A DNA stretch of 64,000 bases, taken from assembly GCA_002382325.1 (NCBI GenBank), contig DGAG01000007.1:200235-264234 (forward strand), given 5' to 3'. A model generated the notes under the pieces. That model was not told where the DNA came from and made no database searches. It saw nothing but the letters and a program-made list of their open reading frames with translations. This document shows positions 44,693-52,741 of this stretch, one piece after another; the first letter of the stretch is position 1, and every line of letters starts with the position of its first letter. Made by a program: the position numbers and the translations under genes. This stretch comes from Epsilonproteobacteria bacterium UBA4036. Lineage in GTDB: Bacteria > Campylobacterota > Campylobacteria > Campylobacterales > Arcobacteraceae.

Positions 44693-47416
44693 TTGAAAAA
44701 AATCAATGATATACTTTTTTCATATTGGACAATGGCAATATTATTGGTCATTTTAGCCCTAGGTGCTGCTGTTGCAACCTTTATTGAAAATGACTATGGA
44801 ACTTCAACGGCCAGAGTTTTAGTTTACAATCATCTGTGGTATGAAACGGTGTTACTTTTAACCATCATTAACCTTTGTGGAGTTATGTACAGAACTTCCA
44901 TGTGGAAAAAACCTCCACGATTTTTATTTCACTTTGCTTTTGTGGTTATTTTATTGGGTTCAATTATTACTCGATATGTCGGCTATGAAGGTATCATGCA
45001 CATACGAGAAGGGCAAACTCAAAATCAAATGAGTTCTCTTGAACCTTATTTACAAGTAACGATTAATCATAAAGGGAAATCATATTATCAAGAGTTTCCT
45101 ATTGAGTTTTCAGCTTTAGGCAATGATTTCGATTTTAATGTTGAATTTGATGATAAAGTGTTAAATTTACACTACAAAGATTACGTCTTTGCCAAACAAG
45201 ACAAAGCAACAATGGGACTTTTAACCTTAAATGCCACTCTTGACAATGAAACCAAAGAGTACAAACTCCCAGGGCAAAGAGGACAACAAGGACTTGAACG
45301 AGGCAACAGCTTTGGTGATACCACCGTTTTAATCCAATACGGGTCAAAAACACTCACCCTTCCTTTTGCCATTCATCTGCGTGATTTTCAACTCGAACGA
45401 TACCCAGGCAGTATGTCACCCTCTTCTTATGCATCGGAAGTTACTGTTATAAAAGAGGATAAAGAACAATACGATTATCGAATTTTTATGAACAATACGC
45501 TTAATGAAGGTAACTTCTTGTTCTTCCAAAGTTCATACGACATGGACGAGTTAGGTACTGTTCTTTCTGTGAACAACGATCCGGGAAAATGGCCAACCTA
45601 TTTTGGATATTTTCTTTTAACTTTAGGATTAGTAATGAATTTTTTTGATAAAAAAAGCCGATTTTGGAAACTGACAAAATATTTAAAAGAGAAAAATATT
45701 GCGTCATTTATTTTAGCTATTGCCCTATTTTCTGGCATCAATAGCTATGCTAAAGAGTATGAGGATGTTCAAGAGTATGTTAAAGAGTTCAAAGCCTCTT
45801 CTGCATTAACGGCACAAAAGTTTGGAAACTTAGCTGTTCAAACTTCACAAGGACGAATGAAACCCATAGGGTCGTTAAACAAACAAATTTTAAATAAACT
45901 CAGTGGCAAAAATGAAATGTTTGGTATGGATTACAATCAAATTGTTTTGGGAATGCTCACACGTCCAGAGTATTGGCGGTTTGTTAAAATCATAAAAATC
46001 AAAACACCCAAACTCAAGCAGCTTATTGGTATTGATGAGAGTGAAAACTATATCTCTTTTTCCGATGTTTTTAAAGACGGAAAATATCTTTTAATTGACC
46101 AAATCAATGAAGCCAACCGAATCAACCCCAACCAAAGAGGAACTTTTGAAAAAGATTTAATCCAAGTGGATGAACGACTCAATATTGCCTATTTGGTTTA
46201 CAGCGGTGAATTATTTAAAATCTTTCCAAAACTTGAAGAGAACAATCACAAATGGTACACGCCTTTGTCGGCTATTCAAGAGTTTGAAAAGGACAATAAA
46301 ATGGCCGTTGAAACCATGACCAAAGGACTTATTAATTATACCATCGTAGAAAACTGGGAGATGGCAAATCAATTTTTAGATCATATTGCAAATTATCAAC
46401 AAAAAGTTGGGGCAAAAGTAATTCCTCATCAAACTCAAATGAAATATGAGTTGCTGTTTGACAAAATTGATGTTTTCCCAAAACTGACATTAGCCTATGT
46501 TTTTTCAGGGTTTATTTTATTTATTGTCGCTTTTGCTTCAGTTTTCAATGAAAAATTAAAATCACGAACGATTACTTATATTTTCTTTGCTGTCTTAGCC
46601 GTACTCTTTGCTGTACACACTTTTGGAATGGGCTTAAGATGGTATGTGAGTGGTCATGCTCCGTGGAGTGATACATATGAATCACTGCTTTATATTTCGT
46701 GGTCAGCCATTTTTGCAGGAGTGGTCTTTTTTAGAAAATCTCTATTGGCATTGAGTGCTTCGGTGATTGTGGCAGGGATTTTTATGTTTACCGCACACTT
46801 AAGCCATATTGACCCACAAATTACCAATTTAGTCCCCGTACTTAAATCATATTGGCTTACGATTCACGTTTCTATTTTAACTGGTTCATATGGATTTTTA
46901 GGGTTAGGTGCTATTTTAGGATTTATGGCAATGTTACTCTTTATTTTTAGATCACCTCAAAGAAAAAATATTGATGAAACCATTAAACACATCACCACCA
47001 TTAATGAAGTGTCGTTAATCATTGGTCTTGCTGCTTTAACCATTGGAAACTTCTTAGGGGGTGTTTGGGCAAATGAATCGTGGGGAAGATATTGGGGTTG
47101 GGATCCTAAAGAGACTTGGGCGTATGTGGCGATTGTAACGTATGTTTTAGTGTTACACTTACGACTCATTAAAGGACTTAACACCGCGTTTGTCTTTAGT
47201 GTGGCTTCACTGTTAGCCTTTTCAACAATTTTGATGACTTACTTTGGAGTAAACTTCTATTTATCAGGAATGCACTCTTACGCCACAGGAGACCCACTTC
47301 CTATTCCTACATGGGTGTATGTTTTAACCGTATTGGTGTTTGTAACTATTGCAGTTGCGTATAGAAAAAGAGATTTAAAAGACGGAGAGATTTGTACTGT
47401 ACCTAAAGGTGAGTAG
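44693..47416 (+). CDS. ccsBA: fused cytochrome c biogenesis protein CcsBA (ResB-like + CcsA)
   Basis: 907 aa with a TTG start. The ResB-like N-terminal half has FLFFQSSYD. The CcsA half has the WWD motif WGRYWGWDPKETW. Confidence 0.9.
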   Translation: MKKINDILFSYWTMAILLVILALGAAVATFIENDYGTSTARVLVYNHLWYETVLLLTIINLCGVMYRTSMWKKPPRFLFHFAFVVILLGSIITRYVGYEGIMHIREGQTQNQMSSLEPYLQVTINHKGKSYYQEFPIEFSALGNDFDFNVEFDDKVLNLHYKDYVFAKQDKATMGLLTLNATLDNETKEYKLPGQRGQQGLERGNSFGDTTVLIQYGSKTLTLPFAIHLRDFQLERYPGSMSPSSYASEVTVIKEDKEQYDYRIFMNNTLNEGNFLFFQSSYDMDELGTVLSVNNDPGKWPTYFGYFLLTLGLVMNFFDKKSRFWKLTKYLKEKNIASFILAIALFSGINSYAKEYEDVQEYVKEFKASSALTAQKFGNLAVQTSQGRMKPIGSLNKQILNKLSGKNEMFGMDYNQIVLGMLTRPEYWRFVKIIKIKTPKLKQLIGIDESENYISFSDVFKDGKYLLIDQINEANRINPNQRGTFEKDLIQVDERLNIAYLVYSGELFKIFPKLEENNHKWYTPLSAIQEFEKDNKMAVETMTKGLINYTIVENWEMANQFLDHIANYQQKVGAKVIPHQTQMKYELLFDKIDVFPKLTLAYVFSGFILFIVAFASVFNEKLKSRTITYIFFAVLAVLFAVHTFGMGLRWYVSGHAPWSDTYESLLYISWSAIFAGVVFFRKSLLALSASVIVAGIFMFTAHLSHIDPQITNLVPVLKSYWLTIHVSILTGSYGFLGLGAILGFMAMLLFIFRSPQRKNIDETIKHITTINEVSLIIGLAALTIGNFLGGVWANESWGRYWGWDPKETWAYVAIVTYVLVLHLRLIKGLNTAFVFSVASLLAFSTILMTYFGVNFYLSGMHSYATGDPLPIPTWVYVLTVLVFVTIAVAYRKRDLKDGEICTVPKGE

Positions 47417-47871: not shown

Positions 47872-48777
47872 TTAAATAATTCTCTCTTTCGTTTTTTCAC
47901 TGACCAGTTTATACGCAATTGCAAGTGCTACAATGACAATACCAATAATAAGTAAATCATCGGCTTTTTCTGAAGACAATGAATAAATCAATATTTTACG
48001 AATCAACGCTGCCATGGCTAAGGTTAAAAAAGCTTTTATGGCAAAGCCTTTGCCTTTTAAGTGTTCAATCTCTTCATTAATCAGCTCAATAGCCGCCCAA
48101 AGCACGAGTAAACTTCCCAAAACTGTTAAAATCCCTTTTTCAATGCCTATATCTGAAAAAAACAGCAAATAAATATCATACACAAAAAGCCCAATGGCAA
48201 AAAATGCCACCAATGCCAAAGCCCCAGCTAAAAAGAAGTTAGTATAAGAACTGAATTTTTTTAAAGAAGATAAAATGCTTTTTTCAATATGCGACAACGA
48301 CAAAAACTTACCCAACTCCTCTTCTCGGTAAGAACTCGTTAAAATATCCAAATTCATGTCAATAATCTTTTCAACCGCACGAATTTGTTTGACGTGTTGC
48401 TCTTTAGACTCAAAATTGTCTTCAATGCTTTGCAAAACAAATGTCCGAACAAACGTAAACGCAGAATTCACATAATGCGTAGGCAAACCAATTTTAACAT
48501 GCACTTCACCAATTTTATACAAAGAAGTAAAATAGACCATGTCATATTTGCCACAAAAAAGATTGATAAACCACTCTTTAAGTTTGAGTTGATGGTGCGC
48601 AATAATCTCTTTGTTTTTTAAAAATTGCGCTGTTTTCCCAAAGCCCCAAATATAATCATAAAATTCATCAATAAACTTATCAGAAAGTTCTATCATACGA
48701 GGTTGAAGTGCTTTTAAAATATCCGCTTCTTGAGATGTAAATTTGTAGTTAGTTTTTAATGAAGTGCATTCTTTCAT
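47872..48777 (-). CDS. protoglobin (globin-coupled-sensor type) domain fused to a PsiE-like 4-TM membrane domain
   Basis: The N-terminal ~150 aa (ADILKALQP...FYDYIWGFGKTAQFL...IGEVHVKIGLPTHYVNSAF) match the protoglobin sensor pattern. The C-terminal ~130 aa are hydrophobic with AAIELINEE and AALIRKILI blocks, which resemble PsiE. Confidence 0.65.
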   Translation of the reverse strand: MKECTSLKTNYKFTSQEADILKALQPRMIELSDKFIDEFYDYIWGFGKTAQFLKNKEIIAHHQLKLKEWFINLFCGKYDMVYFTSLYKIGEVHVKIGLPTHYVNSAFTFVRTFVLQSIEDNFESKEQHVKQIRAVEKIIDMNLDILTSSYREEELGKFLSLSHIEKSILSSLKKFSSYTNFFLAGALALVAFFAIGLFVYDIYLLFFSDIGIEKGILTVLGSLLVLWAAIELINEEIEHLKGKGFAIKAFLTLAMAALIRKILIYSLSSEKADDLLIIGIVIVALAIAYKLVSEKTKERII

Positions 48778-48956
48778 TTTAACCTCCTTATCTTTTATCG
48801 TATTGTAGCTTTCTAATTAAAGGTTTGCTTTGATTTAAAGCAATGTTTTGGTGTGAATGATGTGTAAAGTTTTTGGTGTTTTTTTGACATAGGTTTTGAG
48901 CTATGGGTAAATTCTTTGATTTTTTACTCATACGTTGTATCGAAAATATTTAACTA

Positions 48957-48985
48957 TTTCGACATATAAATTTTATATGTCGAAA
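48957..48985. repeat. perfect 14-1-14 palindrome TTTCGACATATAAA-T-TTTATATGTCGAAA
   Basis: I checked it base by base. Further TTCGACATAT-like half sites lie at 48997-49007 (forward) and 48938-48949 (inverted, imperfect). Confidence 0.7.
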
Positions 48986-49034
48986 ATCCTCTATTTTTTC
49001 GACATATCAAAAAAGTTCTAAATTTATAAAATAC

Positions 49035-49163
49035 TTACTTCATAGCACTATTTGAGATAATACGAGCCACACCGTTTAAGTTTGCTAAAACCCTATTTGC
49101 AGATATTGCTTTTTTTAAGACTTTTTGAGTTTCGATTTGGTGGGTTAATAGTAGGTTCTTCAT
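49035..49163 (-). pseudogene. truncated Fic-family N-terminal fragment (42 codons)
   Basis: My translation is MKNLLLTHQIETQKVLKKAISANRVLANLNGVARIISNSAMK then a stop. The IET..VLK....A.R.LA.L.G pattern matches the Fic_N region, and I found no continuation in any frame downstream. The ATG lies 1 nt after the DUF4435 gene stop. Confidence 0.45.
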
Positions 49164-49164
49164 T

Positions 49165-50133
49165 TCATGCAACTTTTAAATATTTATCCAAAAATTCTAT
49201 TAAACAATTTGGAGTATTTGAATATTGAGCTAATACTGAAATCGAATCTTCTAATTTAAAAGACAAATTACACTTATATTTTTTTGTCAATATCTTTGGT
49301 TCTTTAGCAGTTGCTTCCTCCTTTAGTCTTTTTAGAAAGTCAATGAAAAATTTTAATTCAAACTTACCTCTGAACATACAAGCTTTATTAAAATCACTTG
49401 AATTAAATAATACTAATTTTTTCTCTAATAAATCATCTGTAATTTTTGGTGCATCTTTAAATAAAGTATTCTCAAAAATATCTTTATTCTTCAAATCATC
49501 AAAAATATTAGCTCTTAAATTTAAATCTACATCGAACATATTCTCATTGTTCTTAAAATAATTTTTCAGAACCTCATTAATATCCAATCTTGTACTCGTA
49601 TTTGTTTCTATTCTTATATCATATTGACAAGATAACCAAGCATTTAAGAACAATAATTCATCATGATAATTCGTTAATAATGTAGTATATAAATCTAATA
49701 TTTTAATGAAATTCTCATCTTTCTCTTTCATATTAAATTCACTATTCAAAATTCTTTTTAAAGTATCTTTTGTTGAATAAAAATTCTCTATTGAATAACA
49801 AGGAGTAACATATAGTTTATTCTCTACTTTATCATCAGTATAATCTTTATCTATAAAAAATAATGCTTTAGCTTTATCGTATTCCTTTCGATTTTTAATT
49901 AACTCTTTTACCTTTAAAACTAAATCTCGTCCTCCACATGTAAAATCTTGAAATTCTTTTTCGTATTTTATTGTGACTCTAGTACCATAATATTTTTTGT
50001 CTTCATCCCCTTCAAAAAAGCAGTACACCATGTCTGGATTAGTTTTGGAATATGCTCGTACAAAATTTGTATATGCAACATGTCCAGATTCAGCTTCCTC
50101 CAACATTAATGAGTATAAATCATTTTTACTCAT
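49165..50133 (-). CDS. DUF4435 (TOPRIM-like) protein, AriB-like
   Basis: 322 aa with VYCFFEGDEDKKYY, LFFIDKDYTD and CYSIENFY, which I recall as DUF4435 hallmarks. It overlaps the upstream ATPase gene by 8 nt. Confidence 0.78.
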   Translation of the reverse strand: MSKNDLYSLMLEEAESGHVAYTNFVRAYSKTNPDMVYCFFEGDEDKKYYGTRVTIKYEKEFQDFTCGGRDLVLKVKELIKNRKEYDKAKALFFIDKDYTDDKVENKLYVTPCYSIENFYSTKDTLKRILNSEFNMKEKDENFIKILDLYTTLLTNYHDELLFLNAWLSCQYDIRIETNTSTRLDINEVLKNYFKNNENMFDVDLNLRANIFDDLKNKDIFENTLFKDAPKITDDLLEKKLVLFNSSDFNKACMFRGKFELKFFIDFLKRLKEEATAKEPKILTKKYKCNLSFKLEDSISVLAQYSNTPNCLIEFLDKYLKVA

Positions 50134-51508
50134 TTTTACTATCCATATAAATATTAATACCTACTGCATATTTTTCCAATTCATTTTTAAAAATAAATGG
50201 AGAATGTGTTACAGCTAGTAAAAACTTACATTTTTCAGAATTCATAATATCAGGCAATAAGCGTTTTTGCCACGGTAATGATAATGAAAGTTCTGGTTCA
50301 TCAAATAAAACTATTAAATTTTCTGTTTTTTCTAAATATATTTTTGAGAATATTGAGATAATCTGTTTTTCCCCAGAAGATAATTTATTTATTTCAACTT
50401 TTTCATCAGTACCATCTCTGTAAATGTCTAAATCAACAGAACTTTCATCGTATCTAAATTGTTTATCCACTAAATACTCATTACATACATCACGAAAATT
50501 TTTTATCTTATCATCAAGATGTTTATGTTCATTATAAATATCAATTAATTGAAAGATAAATGAAACCAAATCTTTTCTTTCTTTTAATTTCGCTTTATTT
50601 TTTAGTAATTTTAAAATACCATCTTTATCTTTTTGTGGAATATTATCTCCAACTCTATGTAAAATAATTTTGATTGTATTTTCATCTAGCTCTTCAATTT
50701 CACTATCTTCAATTTTTCTAAAACCATTTAAAAATAGGGATAGCATTTGCCCTGTTAACTTTGAAAAACCAGTAATTGTAGATTTCTCAATTTCTTGCTC
50801 AACAGTAATGATTTTTTTTCTTACATCCTCCATACCGAAATGAATTAATGTATCATCATTAACTTCTAAATCTTCTTCTAATTCTCTATAATAACTTCTA
50901 CTGTCATTACGGTGTATAATTCTTTCTTTAAAACTACCTAAATTTTTTAAATCTTCTTCAACTCTTCTATAAGTAGGTAAATATAGTATTGAAAAATTCA
51001 AATCTTGCTTGATTCTTTCTAATTTATCAAATACATCAAAACTAGGTTTTTCTTTTATATATTTAAAAATTTCTCGAGTCATTATTTCGATTGGTGCAAA
51101 TCTTCTTATTGCGTTTTTTTCAATAAATTCAGCAATAGTTTTTGATACTTTAGAATTAAAGCTATCATAATTATCAAATTGTAATTGATTTAAATTTTCT
51201 AATTGAGTTAAAATACTTAAAGGAATTCTCCTATTGTTGTTATTATTATTTTCTTGGTAAGTTACATAACTTTCTAATTCAAATTTCGAAAATTGTATTT
51301 TCTCTTTATTCCCAAAAATAACCTCTATTGCCTCGAATTCAATATTTGAAAGCTTCTTATATTTTTCATTTAAAAGATAATATAGTGAATTTAAAATAGT
51401 TGTTTTACCAAAACCATTTTCACCTATTAATATTTTCACATTATCTTCAAAATTAATGTCAACATTTCTAAAACCAAAAAGCCCAGTTATTTTAAATCTT
51501 TTTATCAT
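50126..51508 (-). CDS. ABC/SMC-like ATPase with inserted helical domain, AriA-like
   Basis: 460 aa with Walker A GENGFGKTT, Q-loop-like YLPTYRR, signature LSSGEKQ, Walker B LIVLFDEPELSLS and H-loop AVTHSP. RBS AAGGAAA lies upstream. Confidence 0.78.
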   Translation of the reverse strand: MIKRFKITGLFGFRNVDINFEDNVKILIGENGFGKTTILNSLYYLLNEKYKKLSNIEFEAIEVIFGNKEKIQFSKFELESYVTYQENNNNNNRRIPLSILTQLENLNQLQFDNYDSFNSKVSKTIAEFIEKNAIRRFAPIEIMTREIFKYIKEKPSFDVFDKLERIKQDLNFSILYLPTYRRVEEDLKNLGSFKERIIHRNDSRSYYRELEEDLEVNDDTLIHFGMEDVRKKIITVEQEIEKSTITGFSKLTGQMLSLFLNGFRKIEDSEIEELDENTIKIILHRVGDNIPQKDKDGILKLLKNKAKLKERKDLVSFIFQLIDIYNEHKHLDDKIKNFRDVCNEYLVDKQFRYDESSVDLDIYRDGTDEKVEINKLSSGEKQIISIFSKIYLEKTENLIVLFDEPELSLSLPWQKRLLPDIMNSEKCKFLLAVTHSPFIFKNELEKYAVGINIYMDSKNE

Positions 51509-51739
51509 TCTTTATTTCCTTTTTTTTTAATTCAATTTTGAAATTCTTTTTTTAACTCTTATCCATCCCCACCACTCAAAATCCTCATTTGATTAATGGC
51601 AATTTTATTAAGCTTTTCTATCCTTTGACTTTTGGAAAATCTCTCAATTAAAAATTTCTTTTAAACCCATCAAATTCGACGGCTTTAAAATCAAGATTAT
51701 AAAAAATTTCCACATATTCTTACTCTTTTTCACTTCGTA

Positions 51740-52741
51740 TTATCTTAATCCCAAAACATCCCTCTCAATCTCTCTTTTCAACTCTTCTTCCGTTGGCAAA
51801 TAAAGCTGATATTTTGATACAAAGAGATTATCTTTGCTATTTATATGTGAGTATTTTACAATAGTTTCATCTTTATCTGTGCATAAAATTATTCCAATAG
51901 TTGGATTATCACTTTCATTCTTTTCCAAATCATCGTACATATTTACATACATATCAATTTGCCCAATATCTTGATGGGTTAGTTTTCCTATTTTCAAATC
52001 TATAAGTACAAAACATTTTAAAAGATAGTTATAAAAATCACTTGTTTGTGTTTTGATTCTTTTTTGTCGTGACACAAATGCAAAACCTCGACCTAGTTCC
52101 AGCAAAAATTCTTGTATTTTTTCTAGCAAGGCACTTTCAAGTTCATTTTCTCTGAATGATTTATTGTCTTTTAAATCTAAAAATTCCAATACATAAGGAT
52201 CTTTGATAATATCTTTTGCTGTAAGTTGTAGATTTTTTGTATTTTCTTTGGCTTCATCAATAACGGGCTGTTTTTCTTGACTTGATATAACTCTTTCATA
52301 ATAAAGTGAGTTTATTTGTCTTTCTAAAGCTCTAACACTCCAATTAGAAGCGATGGTTTCTTGTATATAATACTCTCTTGCTTGTTCGTTTTCAATTCTC
52401 ATGATAAGTCGATAATGACTCCAACTCAATTCGCTACACAGTGTGTAGCAATTTGAAAAGACTAAATAAAACTGTCTCATATTTCTAAGATTTTGAGGAG
52501 TAAATCCAGTACCAAAATCAACGGTGAGTTGCTTTGATAATTCACTTATAAGGTTTGAGCCATATTTTGCTTTTGTTTCCCCATGTTGTTCCACTTCTAC
52601 TATTTTTTTACCCACATTCCGATAGGCTTCCACCATAATAAAATTTACAGATTTATAGGCATTATCTCTTGCTGTTTGTAAGATAGATTTAATATCTTGA
52701 TAAAATTGGTTATTTGATTGTTTTACTGTTTCACTCATCAA
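51740..52741 (-). CDS. YhcG/DUF1016 PD-(D/E)xK nuclease-family protein
   Basis: The N-terminal part reads YQDIKSILQTARDNAYKSVNFIMVEAYRNVGKKIVE...NLRNMRQFYLVF. The C-terminal part reads GRGFAFVSRQKRI...CFVLIDLKIGKLTHQDIGQIDMYV. Confidence 0.82.
   Translation of the reverse strand: MMSETVKQSNNQFYQDIKSILQTARDNAYKSVNFIMVEAYRNVGKKIVEVEQHGETKAKYGSNLISELSKQLTVDFGTGFTPQNLRNMRQFYLVFSNCYTLCSELSWSHYRLIMRIENEQAREYYIQETIASNWSVRALERQINSLYYERVISSQEKQPVIDEAKENTKNLQLTAKDIIKDPYVLEFLDLKDNKSFRENELESALLEKIQEFLLELGRGFAFVSRQKRIKTQTSDFYNYLLKCFVLIDLKIGKLTHQDIGQIDMYVNMYDDLEKNESDNPTIGIILCTDKDETIVKYSHINSKDNLFVSKYQLYLPTEEELKREIERDVLGLR

Follow-up and report, generated by a model that had tools for sequence, protein, structure and literature searches.

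Does a pair of overlapping minus-strand genes in the most AT-rich part of an Arcobacteraceae chromosomal stretch constitute an intact PARIS defence system, and how closely would it resemble the system described from E. coli B185? A preliminary description of the window, that is, the whole stretch of 64,000 nucleotides that was analysed, had read the pair as PARIS. This reading is supported by the published HMM rule, PADLOC models, protein folds, catalytic residues and an accessory distribution. With a probability of roughly 85%, the locus is an intact two-gene PARIS system of abortive infection (OLD-family class 4) on a low-GC cassette of ~3.9 kb downstream of lpdA. The two ORFs and their 8-nt overlap were found exactly at the coordinates first given (Table 1), and the overlap implies, at the level of sequence, translational coupling of ariA and ariB; the corresponding ORFs of four relatives (L003, L004, L092 and L097) overlap by 11–14 nt. 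The GC content of the 1-kb bins across 49–52 kb was 0.241, 0.259 and 0.249, compared with ~0.33 for the window, confirming that the pair occupies its most AT-rich 3 kb. The sole other bin equally low in GC was 37–38 kb (0.250), and the cassette has a GC content of 24–26% versus 33% for the window. Stop codons are AT-rich, and uninterrupted reading frames as long as 460 and 322 codons in DNA of 25% GC are therefore not products of chance; both exact proteins are also present in public assemblies. The host had been assigned to Campylobacterota, rightly so: the flanking lpdA is 79–88% identical to Arcobacter and Halarcobacter genomes.

Table 1 Features of the ariAB locus and its surroundings, in window coordinates.
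Feature	Position	Strand	Basis or remark
ariA (460 aa)	50126..51508	minus	ORF list; Pfam, PADLOC, PDB sequence and fold matches
ariA hypervariable segment, codons ~61–180	50969..51328	minus	insert made up of helices only, in the N-terminal lobe of the ATPase
AriA residues: Walker A K35; signature S377–Q382; Walker B D403–E404; H-loop H435			
ariB (322 aa, DUF4435)	49165..50133	minus	ORF list; Pfam, PADLOC and fold matches
ariA/ariB overlap, 8 nt, ATGAGTAA	50126..50133	minus	ariB start within ariA stop
Intergenic region upstream of ariA, 231 nt	51509..51739	minus	sequence read directly; consensus matches only
DUF1016_N + YhcG_C PDDEXK nuclease gene	51740..52741	minus	PADLOC candidate PDC-S02, 3.5e-135; Pfam
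42-codon ORF	49035..49163	minus	begins 2 nt beyond the ariB stop codon; Fic_N match under the threshold (E 0.029)
ATATGTCGAAA, three copies, nested hairpin	48957..49007		downstream of the cassette genes

The published MacSyFinder rule for PARIS asks for adjacent, co-oriented genes with AAA_15 (≥32 bits) or AAA_21 (≥27 bits) and DUF4435 (≥27 bits) (PMC9122126). Here, two co-oriented, overlapping genes scored 57.2 bits for AAA_15 and 50.6 bits for AAA_21 in the ATPase and 122.6 bits for DUF4435 (2.9e-35) in its partner, all above 32/27/27. In PADLOC, AriA was the best model for the 460-aa ATPase (3.4e-32) and AriB the sole match of the 322-aa protein (4.7e-29), and for both proteins the solved AriA or AriB was the best fold match over any other solved structure. 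A different ABC-ATPase defence family (Gabija/OLD class 1–2, Septu PtuAB, AbiL or MADS3–4) might nevertheless be suspected, since the ATPase also matched the PADLOC models PtuA (2.3e-18), mad3 (2.9e-14) and GajA (6.2e-11, limited to the P-loop end), and the fold search returned retron and Septu PtuA structures with E values from 1e-8 to 1e-6. However, AriA was the best PADLOC model by 14 orders of magnitude and the 15 best folds were all AriA chains. The partner, for its part, matched only AriB/DUF4435, with no match to HNH (PtuB), mad4, AbiLii/RloB/DUF4276 or UvrD (GajB). Neither an HNH nor a PtuB match was obtained for it in PADLOC and Pfam, Pfam detected no TOPRIM_OLD or UvrD in the three genes of the cassette, and the TOPRIM domain, part of the ATPase polypeptide in OLD and GajA, here belongs to a protein of its own. 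Membership of one of these other families is thus extremely improbable and can be regarded as largely excluded.

The ATPase motifs listed in the preliminary description (GENGFGKTT, LSSGEKQ, VLFDEPE and THSP) were all found in the AriA translation, and the ATPase motif positions were invariant in 28 homologues. A phmmer search matched AriA to the AriA chain 8ux9_B of the PDB (9.8e-14) and brought their Walker B, signature and H-loop stretches into register. In E. coli AriA, K39 of Walker A and E393 of Walker B are essential. The AF2 model of AriA (pLDDT 80) gave a best fold E value of 3.8e-16 and TM values up to 0.61, followed by retron PtuA at 1.5e-8. It contains a helical insert at ~75–170, whose helices lie between strands 70–74 and 173–177, and a coiled-coil region at ~226–343.

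[quoted passage not shown] The best PDB fold matches of its AF2 model (pLDDT 91.5) were 8ux9_A (E 1.3e-4) and 8v46_D (E 6.6e-4), both AriB, with probability 1.00 and TM 0.45–0.47; OLD C-terminal regions came next. The TM values of the two proteins are moderate, and the relationship to E. coli AriA and AriB is therefore distant. For AriB, the link to PDB AriB was made by fold search only: PDB sequence searches with AriB alone and then with a 32-sequence profile found no AriB, and hhalign of the AriB family profile against the single E. coli sequence gave a probability of 4.7%, with the register right over D88/E90/E122. The E. coli AriB used for comparison was a P4-satellite copy on an E. coli chromosome (L085) obtained via protein search; a B185 AriA fragment had no match in IMG/VR and retrieved only distant AriA relatives from phage and plasmid collections. 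In the alignment with E. coli AriB, all five TOPRIM acidic residues were present: E41, D45, D95, D97 and E116 fall in the columns of E26, D30, D88, E90 and E122 of the B185-type protein, and they were invariant in 32 homologues. R255 aligned with E. coli R236, which touches the D-loop in the AF3 model that has been published. Conservation in the MAFFT alignment, which is unreliable outside the motifs, does not extend to five further E. coli residues implicated in AriA contact (R28), in holding the anticodon loop (K60, K64) and in dimerisation (K144, R289). In this same alignment R28 is D43 and R31 is K46, and therefore details of the AriA–AriB interface probably differ from those in E. coli.

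Both genes are under purifying selection, with dN/dS values of 0.24–0.32 for ariA and ariB against three relatives. Rather than being conserved core genes, they were missing after lpdA in 18 related species of Arcobacteraceae and were found in at least four other contexts in relatives (L003, L004, L092 and L097), and ariA was immediately upstream of ariB in all ten independent related loci examined. The named source is a Fusobacteriaceae MAG for an AriA 85% identical to that of the window, a Gracilibacteria MAG for AriA/AriB homologues of 65%/47% identity and a Bacteroidetes MAG for homologues of 55%/39%. An AriA allele of A. thereius is 85% identical, and pairs 30–34% identical occur on six IMG/VR viral contigs. 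The ariAB pair is accessory and has moved horizontally. No mobility gene or flanking repeat accounting for this movement was found; the search of the cassette ends gave no integrase and no convincing direct or inverted repeats, and no tRNA gene that could serve as an attachment site was present in the 64,000-nt window. In two relatives (L011 and L067) a two-component/GGDEF set follows lpdA; synteny is therefore rearranged, there is no simple empty site, and the exact insertion point is indefinable.

The pair had also been described as lying next to defence-type remnants. A defence gene does adjoin it, the DUF1016/YhcG nuclease gene immediately upstream, but this gene is intact, and the only remnant-like neighbour is the 42-codon ORF, which is probably what is left of a Fic/DOC gene, judging from its residual similarity to Fic_N and from a 48-aa counterpart in L097 with a better Fic_N match (E 7.9e-4). 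Since ariAB and the DUF1016/YhcG gene lie on one strand in one low-GC block, and a 3661-nt block (52705..49093) containing the latter gene and the intergenic spacer is 82% identical to L096/L097 in an unrelated context, the three genes could be envisaged as a single variant of PARIS in which the PD-(D/E)xK nuclease serves as a second effector or sensor. However, L097 has a DUF1016 gene broken into pieces of 68 and 226 aa beside an intact ariAB, and the gene is missing beside ariAB in L003, L004, L092–L095 and six viral loci (L086–L091). PADLOC, moreover, lists DUF1016 as a single-gene candidate system (PDC-S02), and the 231-nt gap ahead of ariA has its own TATAAT and ribosome-binding site. The three-gene system was rejected on account of the broken or missing DUF1016 beside intact pairs; we consider it very improbable, and a role of the co-mobilised nuclease as a functional third component is less likely than the altered specificity considered below. 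It is probably an independent defence gene outside PARIS that moves together with ariAB in one other lineage.

In the gap itself, the TATAAT is a perfect match (51696..51701) and an AGGA (51517..51520) precedes the ariA ATG by 8 nt, marking the region as a likely candidate for the promoter and leader of ariA; a scan for promoter-like sites gave no enrichment over shuffled sequence. A scan of the locus found no intrinsic terminator, and no Rfam family matched within 48.6–53.0 kb. At the other end, ATATGTCGAAA occurs in three exact copies within 51 nt, compared with 1.9 one-mismatch matches expected window-wide, and forms a hairpin of -25.4 kcal/mol (z -3.55) that could serve as terminator or operator.

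Variation in AriA is concentrated in the insert of the N-terminal lobe. Segment 61–180 is 27–63% identical in relatives whose residues 181–420 are 87–100% identical, and its dN is 0.50–0.57 versus 0.07–0.21 elsewhere, with similar, partly saturated dS. This pattern would fit a sensor under arms-race pressure and makes the insert a candidate trigger-sensing surface. It also bears on whether ariAB might be a toxin–antitoxin pair with AriA as a simple antitoxin. PARIS acts as a type II toxin–antitoxin pair in E. coli (PMC10802264), and a tiny cassette without mobility genes is kept here at several unrelated chromosomal sites. On the other hand, a variable insert on a conserved core is the pattern expected where a surface follows changing phage proteins and would be unexpected in a simple antitoxin, relatives adjoin defence genes (Abi_2 in L092–L095; DUF1016/PDC-S02 here and in L097), and related pairs are found on viral contigs. 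A simple toxin–antitoxin pair is accordingly improbable, and we retain the reading as a PARIS defence system.

In E. coli, AriA assembles into a homohexamer whose head–head interfaces keep up to three AriB monomers sequestered. By extension from the B185 system, the AriA described here would form a hexamer through its ATPase heads and coiled-coils and hold AriB monomers inactive. A phage protein would then bind AriA in an ATP-dependent manner and free AriB, which would dimerise and use its two-metal TOPRIM site to nick particular host tRNAs in their anticodon stem-loop, and tRNA cleavage would stop translation and abort the infection (for the B185 mechanism, see PMC11464382, PMC10802264 and PMC12409363). 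The suggestion of the preliminary description that trigger and target may differ from those in E. coli is reasonable and would not make this a new kind of system; in the Arcobacteraceae copy, the trigger probably differs from Ocr and the tRNA targets from tRNA-Lys/Thr/Asn. A more specific idea, which we put forward tentatively and with somewhat more doubt than conviction, is that the Arcobacteraceae PARIS clade senses another class of phage protein via the AriA insert (~61–180) and that its AriB cuts other tRNAs. If this is true, the insert would be a swappable specificity module.

To our knowledge, PARIS is unstudied in the phylum of this host. PARIS has been reported from ~5% of prokaryotic genomes (PMC9122126), and standard tools would pick up the present locus automatically, so that finding it is to be expected and is no discovery; because the pair is a typical, intact copy of known PARIS, it is an ordinary feature that was correctly called. 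Its interest lies in the delimited hypervariable segment of AriA, which could serve to map trigger specificity, and in a further example of PARIS, DUF1016/PDC-S02, Abi_2 and a Fic stump moving as mini-cassettes without recognisable mobility genes.

Among known systems, OLD class 1 (P2 Old and Bp/Xcc/Ts OLD) and class 2 (Gabija GajA) share the combination of an ABC ATPase with a two-metal TOPRIM nuclease, and the OLD C-terminal TOPRIM regions (6nk8, 6njv and 6p74) that were next-best to the AriB folds are far weaker matches (E 0.2–2.6). In OLD and GajA, however, ATPase and TOPRIM are fused and act on DNA, whereas here they are separate proteins without a GajB-type helicase neighbour. Septu and retron PtuA are likewise AAA_15/21-type ABC ATPases with a helical insertion and rank second by HMM and fold, but their scores are many orders weaker and their partner is the HNH nuclease PtuB, not a DUF4435 protein. 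The active site of AriB has been placed closest to M5 RNase (PMC10802264), a likeness that speaks for RNA as the substrate of DUF4435 TOPRIM domains. RNase M5 was not among the fold matches of AriB, and it differs in that it is a housekeeping enzyme maturing 5S rRNA and has no ATPase partner. The closest comparison is E. coli B185 PARIS, the sole system with a studied mechanism, represented by PDB 8UX9 and 8V45–8V49 (Rousset 2022, Burman 2024, Deep 2024). Both systems are accessory and mobile and have the order ariA–ariB with overlapping or abutting ORFs and similar protein sizes (460 aa here versus 464 aa; 322 versus ~306 aa). They share an AriA of the ABC/SMC type with Walker A, Walker B, signature, H-loop and a short coiled-coil, and the TOPRIM plus helical-bundle architecture, the five catalytic acidic residues and the R236/R255 position in AriB. 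They differ in sequence, with identities of ~15–17% for AriA and 11–15% for AriB (11% in the fold alignment, 15% in MAFFT) and TM values of ~0.45–0.6, and in setting, the B185 system lying in a P4 satellite hotspot and the Arcobacteraceae pair on a bare chromosomal cassette. The E. coli prototype AriB has no Pfam DUF4435 match and scores 34.7 bits with PADLOC AriB, in contrast to the strong DUF4435 score of the window protein. Compact and intact, the locus represents the canonical DUF4435 branch, and the Pfam and PADLOC models describe it far better than they describe the E. coli prototype.

The two overlapping minus-strand genes that the preliminary description had claimed as a PARIS module were present in the ORF list with exactly those coordinates, and 8 nt (ATGAGTAA) are common to the end of ariA and the start of ariB. 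The ariB ATG is embedded in the junction ...AAA AAT GAG TAA, and an AGGA sits 8 nt 5' of the ariA ATG. All motifs that had been quoted were found in the translations, and the AT-rich setting was borne out by a GC content of 0.241-0.259 in the three bins of 1 kb that cover 49-52 kb against a window mean near 0.33. Identical copies of both proteins are held in public assemblies. AriA matched Pfam AAA_15 over the whole protein (57.2 bits) and AAA_21 (50.6 bits), and AriB matched DUF4435 (122.6 bits, 2.9e-35) with 234 of 238 model positions covered. In the paper that defined PARIS, detection required two adjacent genes, one with AAA_15 at >=32 bits or AAA_21 at >=27 and the other with DUF4435 at >=27 (PMC9122126), and the window pair clears these thresholds by a wide margin. 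NCBIfam offers no specific model for either protein. The best PADLOC model for the ATPase was AriA (3.4e-32), followed by PtuA (2.3e-18) and mad3 (2.9e-14), and AriB (4.7e-29) was the sole match of the nuclease. Membership in another ABC-ATPase defence family is excluded, since the partner matches DUF4435/AriB alone and the TOPRIM domain belongs to a second polypeptide. Both the observation and its PARIS reading are correct; the detection rule holds, and AriA and AriB are the best PADLOC models. The locus adds a new, uncharacterised member to a widespread system already known, and it would be picked up by standard defence-annotation tools.

We found ariA directly upstream of ariB in all related loci examined, namely A. 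butzleri, Arcobacter sp. F2176, two metagenomic lineages (L092-L095 and L096/L097) and six IMG/VR viral contigs (L086-L091). Overlaps of 11-14 nt are seen in the related cellular loci, and short gaps separate the two genes on the viral contigs. Campylobacterota, Bacteroidota and Gracilibacteria contain named homologues of the pair, and AriA has homologues in Fusobacteriaceae as well, including one at 85% identity to the window AriA. An exhaustive search with AriB returned 1,195 cluster representatives at E <= 0.001, including 112 at E <= 1e-30, and the best 150 of the 1,195 were mostly full-length (300-330 aa). Against three relatives, dN/dS was 0.24-0.32 for both genes, indicating that ariA and ariB are under purifying selection. 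The two genes are translationally linked, inherited together and kept by selection. In L092-L095, AriB is 85% identical to that of the window and AriA only 65%, and the partners therefore diverge at very different rates.

The variation within AriA is concentrated in residues about 61-180, an all-helical insert flanked on each side by a strand of the N-terminal ATPase lobe in the AriA model. Relatives with 87-100% identity at residues 181-420 share 27-63% in the insert, and its dN was 0.50-0.57, 3-9 times higher than the 0.07-0.21 elsewhere in ariA, with similar dS, although dS is near saturation and the values are only indicative. A second, weaker variable block was observed at residues 271-300. 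The position of the insert is that of insertion IS1 of E. coli AriA (PMC11464382); the same paper reported that poor conservation in AriA falls on the pore residues that face the trigger. The variability of the insert supports a sensor role for AriA. Following the E. coli work, an AriA hexamer would hold AriB monomers sequestered until a phage protein binds AriA and sets AriB free, whereupon AriB would dimerise and nick specific tRNAs, translation would halt and infection would abort. A role as a pure addiction module is conceivable but fits less well with the hypervariable sensor segment and with the neighbouring defence genes.

The flanking pyruvate dehydrogenase genes place the host in Arcobacteraceae, lpdA being 79-88% identical to that of Arcobacter/Halarcobacter genomes. 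The pair is accessory and not core: DUF1016, AriA and AriB were missing within 10 kb downstream of lpdA in all 18 related species; in L011 and L067 a two-component/GGDEF set is found there instead. The window and L096/L097 share a 3,661-nt block (52705..49093, 82% identical) that runs from the DUF1016/YhcG gene through the spacer, ariA and ariB into the beginning of a small ORF, and in L096/L097 it is flanked by a biotin carboxylase gene and the suf operon. A 77-nt piece past the small ORF, common to these otherwise unrelated loci, is a possible right-hand boundary of the cassette, whose extent matches the low-GC zone. Since similarity to L092, A. butzleri and Arcobacter sp. F2176 is limited to ariAB, the minimal moving unit is ariAB, sometimes with DUF1016. 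To account for the movement of the cassette, neither an integrase nor a tRNA gene was found, nor any convincing terminal repeats. The DUF1016/YhcG gene shares one low-GC cassette with ariAB and lies beside the pair also in the unrelated context of L096/L097, as might be expected of a single three-gene system, but there it is split into 68 + 226 aa. This break in L097, together with intact ariAB pairs elsewhere without an adjacent DUF1016, makes such a system unlikely. In L092-L095, ariAB is followed by an uncharacterised 98-aa ORF and an Abi_2 (AbiD-like) gene. The 42-codon ORF behind ariB in the window is probably what remains of a lost Fic/DOC gene; the L097 ORF at the same place has 48 aa (Fic_N E 7.9e-4). 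A hairpin (-25.4 kcal/mol, z -3.55) without a T-run separates the cassette from the protoglobin/PsiE gene, and L097 does not share it. The cassette flanks, 47872..48777 (-) and 44693..47416 (+), encode a protoglobin + PsiE fusion, a small cupin and a ResB + CcsA fusion of 907 aa, a CcsBA-type cytochrome c synthase; gene order from lpdA to ccsBA varies among related species.

Features of the ariAB cassette and its possible right-hand border
Feature	Position	Strand	Remarks
DUF1016_N + YhcG_C PD-(D/E)xK nuclease gene, intact	51740..52741	-	PADLOC candidate PDC-S02, 3.5e-135
ariA	50126..51508	-	460 aa, ATG start (ORF list)
AriA hypervariable helical insert	50969..51328 (codons about 61-180)	-	identity and dN comparison
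ariB	49165..50133	-	322 aa, ATG start (ORF list)
42-codon ORF	49035..49163	-	2 nt past ariB stop; Fic_N E 0.029, sub-threshold
Nested hairpin	48957..49007		three exact ATATGTCGAAA copies, one of them on the strand opposite to the other two
Non-coding 77-nt piece	48856..48932 (L097 8181..8256)		83% identical

The B185-type AriB that served as the E. coli reference is encoded at L085:4516-5439, in a P4-like satellite of an E. coli chromosome, and its numbering agrees with the published E26/R28/D30/R31. In this locus (CP169307.1) the prototype ariA is annotated as three separate genes (205, 77 and 172 aa) beside an intact ariB (308 aa), which would leave a supposedly toxic AriB without full-length AriA. 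The TOPRIM acidic residues, on which the assignment had been made to depend, matched at all five E. coli positions: E26 and D30 correspond to window E41 and D45 (MAFFT), a register that also agrees when both proteins are placed on the PADLOC AriB model, and D88, E90 and E122 to D95, D97 and E116 (hhalign and MAFFT). All five are invariant across 32 homologues with identity down to 27%. E. coli R236, proposed to contact the D-loop of tRNA (PMC12409363), corresponds to R255, kept in 31 of the 32. R28, K60, K64, K144 and R289 are not kept here, in an alignment of 15% identity that is untrustworthy outside the motifs. The window proteins possess all that ATP binding and hydrolysis and two-metal TOPRIM catalysis require.

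The window AriA matched AriA in the PDB by sequence (8ux9_B, 8v45, 8v46; about 1e-13), with LSSGE(K/R)Q, (L/V)(F/I)DEPE and THSP aligned. Since a PDB sequence search with AriB found nothing, either as a single protein or as a 32-sequence profile, both proteins were modelled. The AriB model (pLDDT 91.5, pTM 0.88) shows an alpha/beta domain at the N-terminus and a helical bundle after it, the architecture reported for AriB (PMC10802264). Its top two PDB fold matches were both AriB chains, 8ux9_A (E 1.3e-4) and 8v46_D (E 6.6e-4), at probability 1.00, TM 0.45-0.47 and 11% identity, and the TOPRIM regions of OLD nucleases ranked next. The 15 best fold matches of the AriA model (pLDDT 80.4) were all AriA chains (best E 3.8e-16), with retron and Septu PtuA behind them from 1.5e-8. 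The main use of this locus would be as a comparison system for PARIS trigger and target specificity, and its interest is low to moderate. The E. coli prototype AriB has no Pfam DUF4435 match and scores 34.7 bits on the PADLOC AriB model, whereas the window AriB suits the family models much better, and the window copy is therefore placed in the canonical DUF4435 branch. The window PARIS stands far from the E. coli example that has been studied, but is more typical of the family models.
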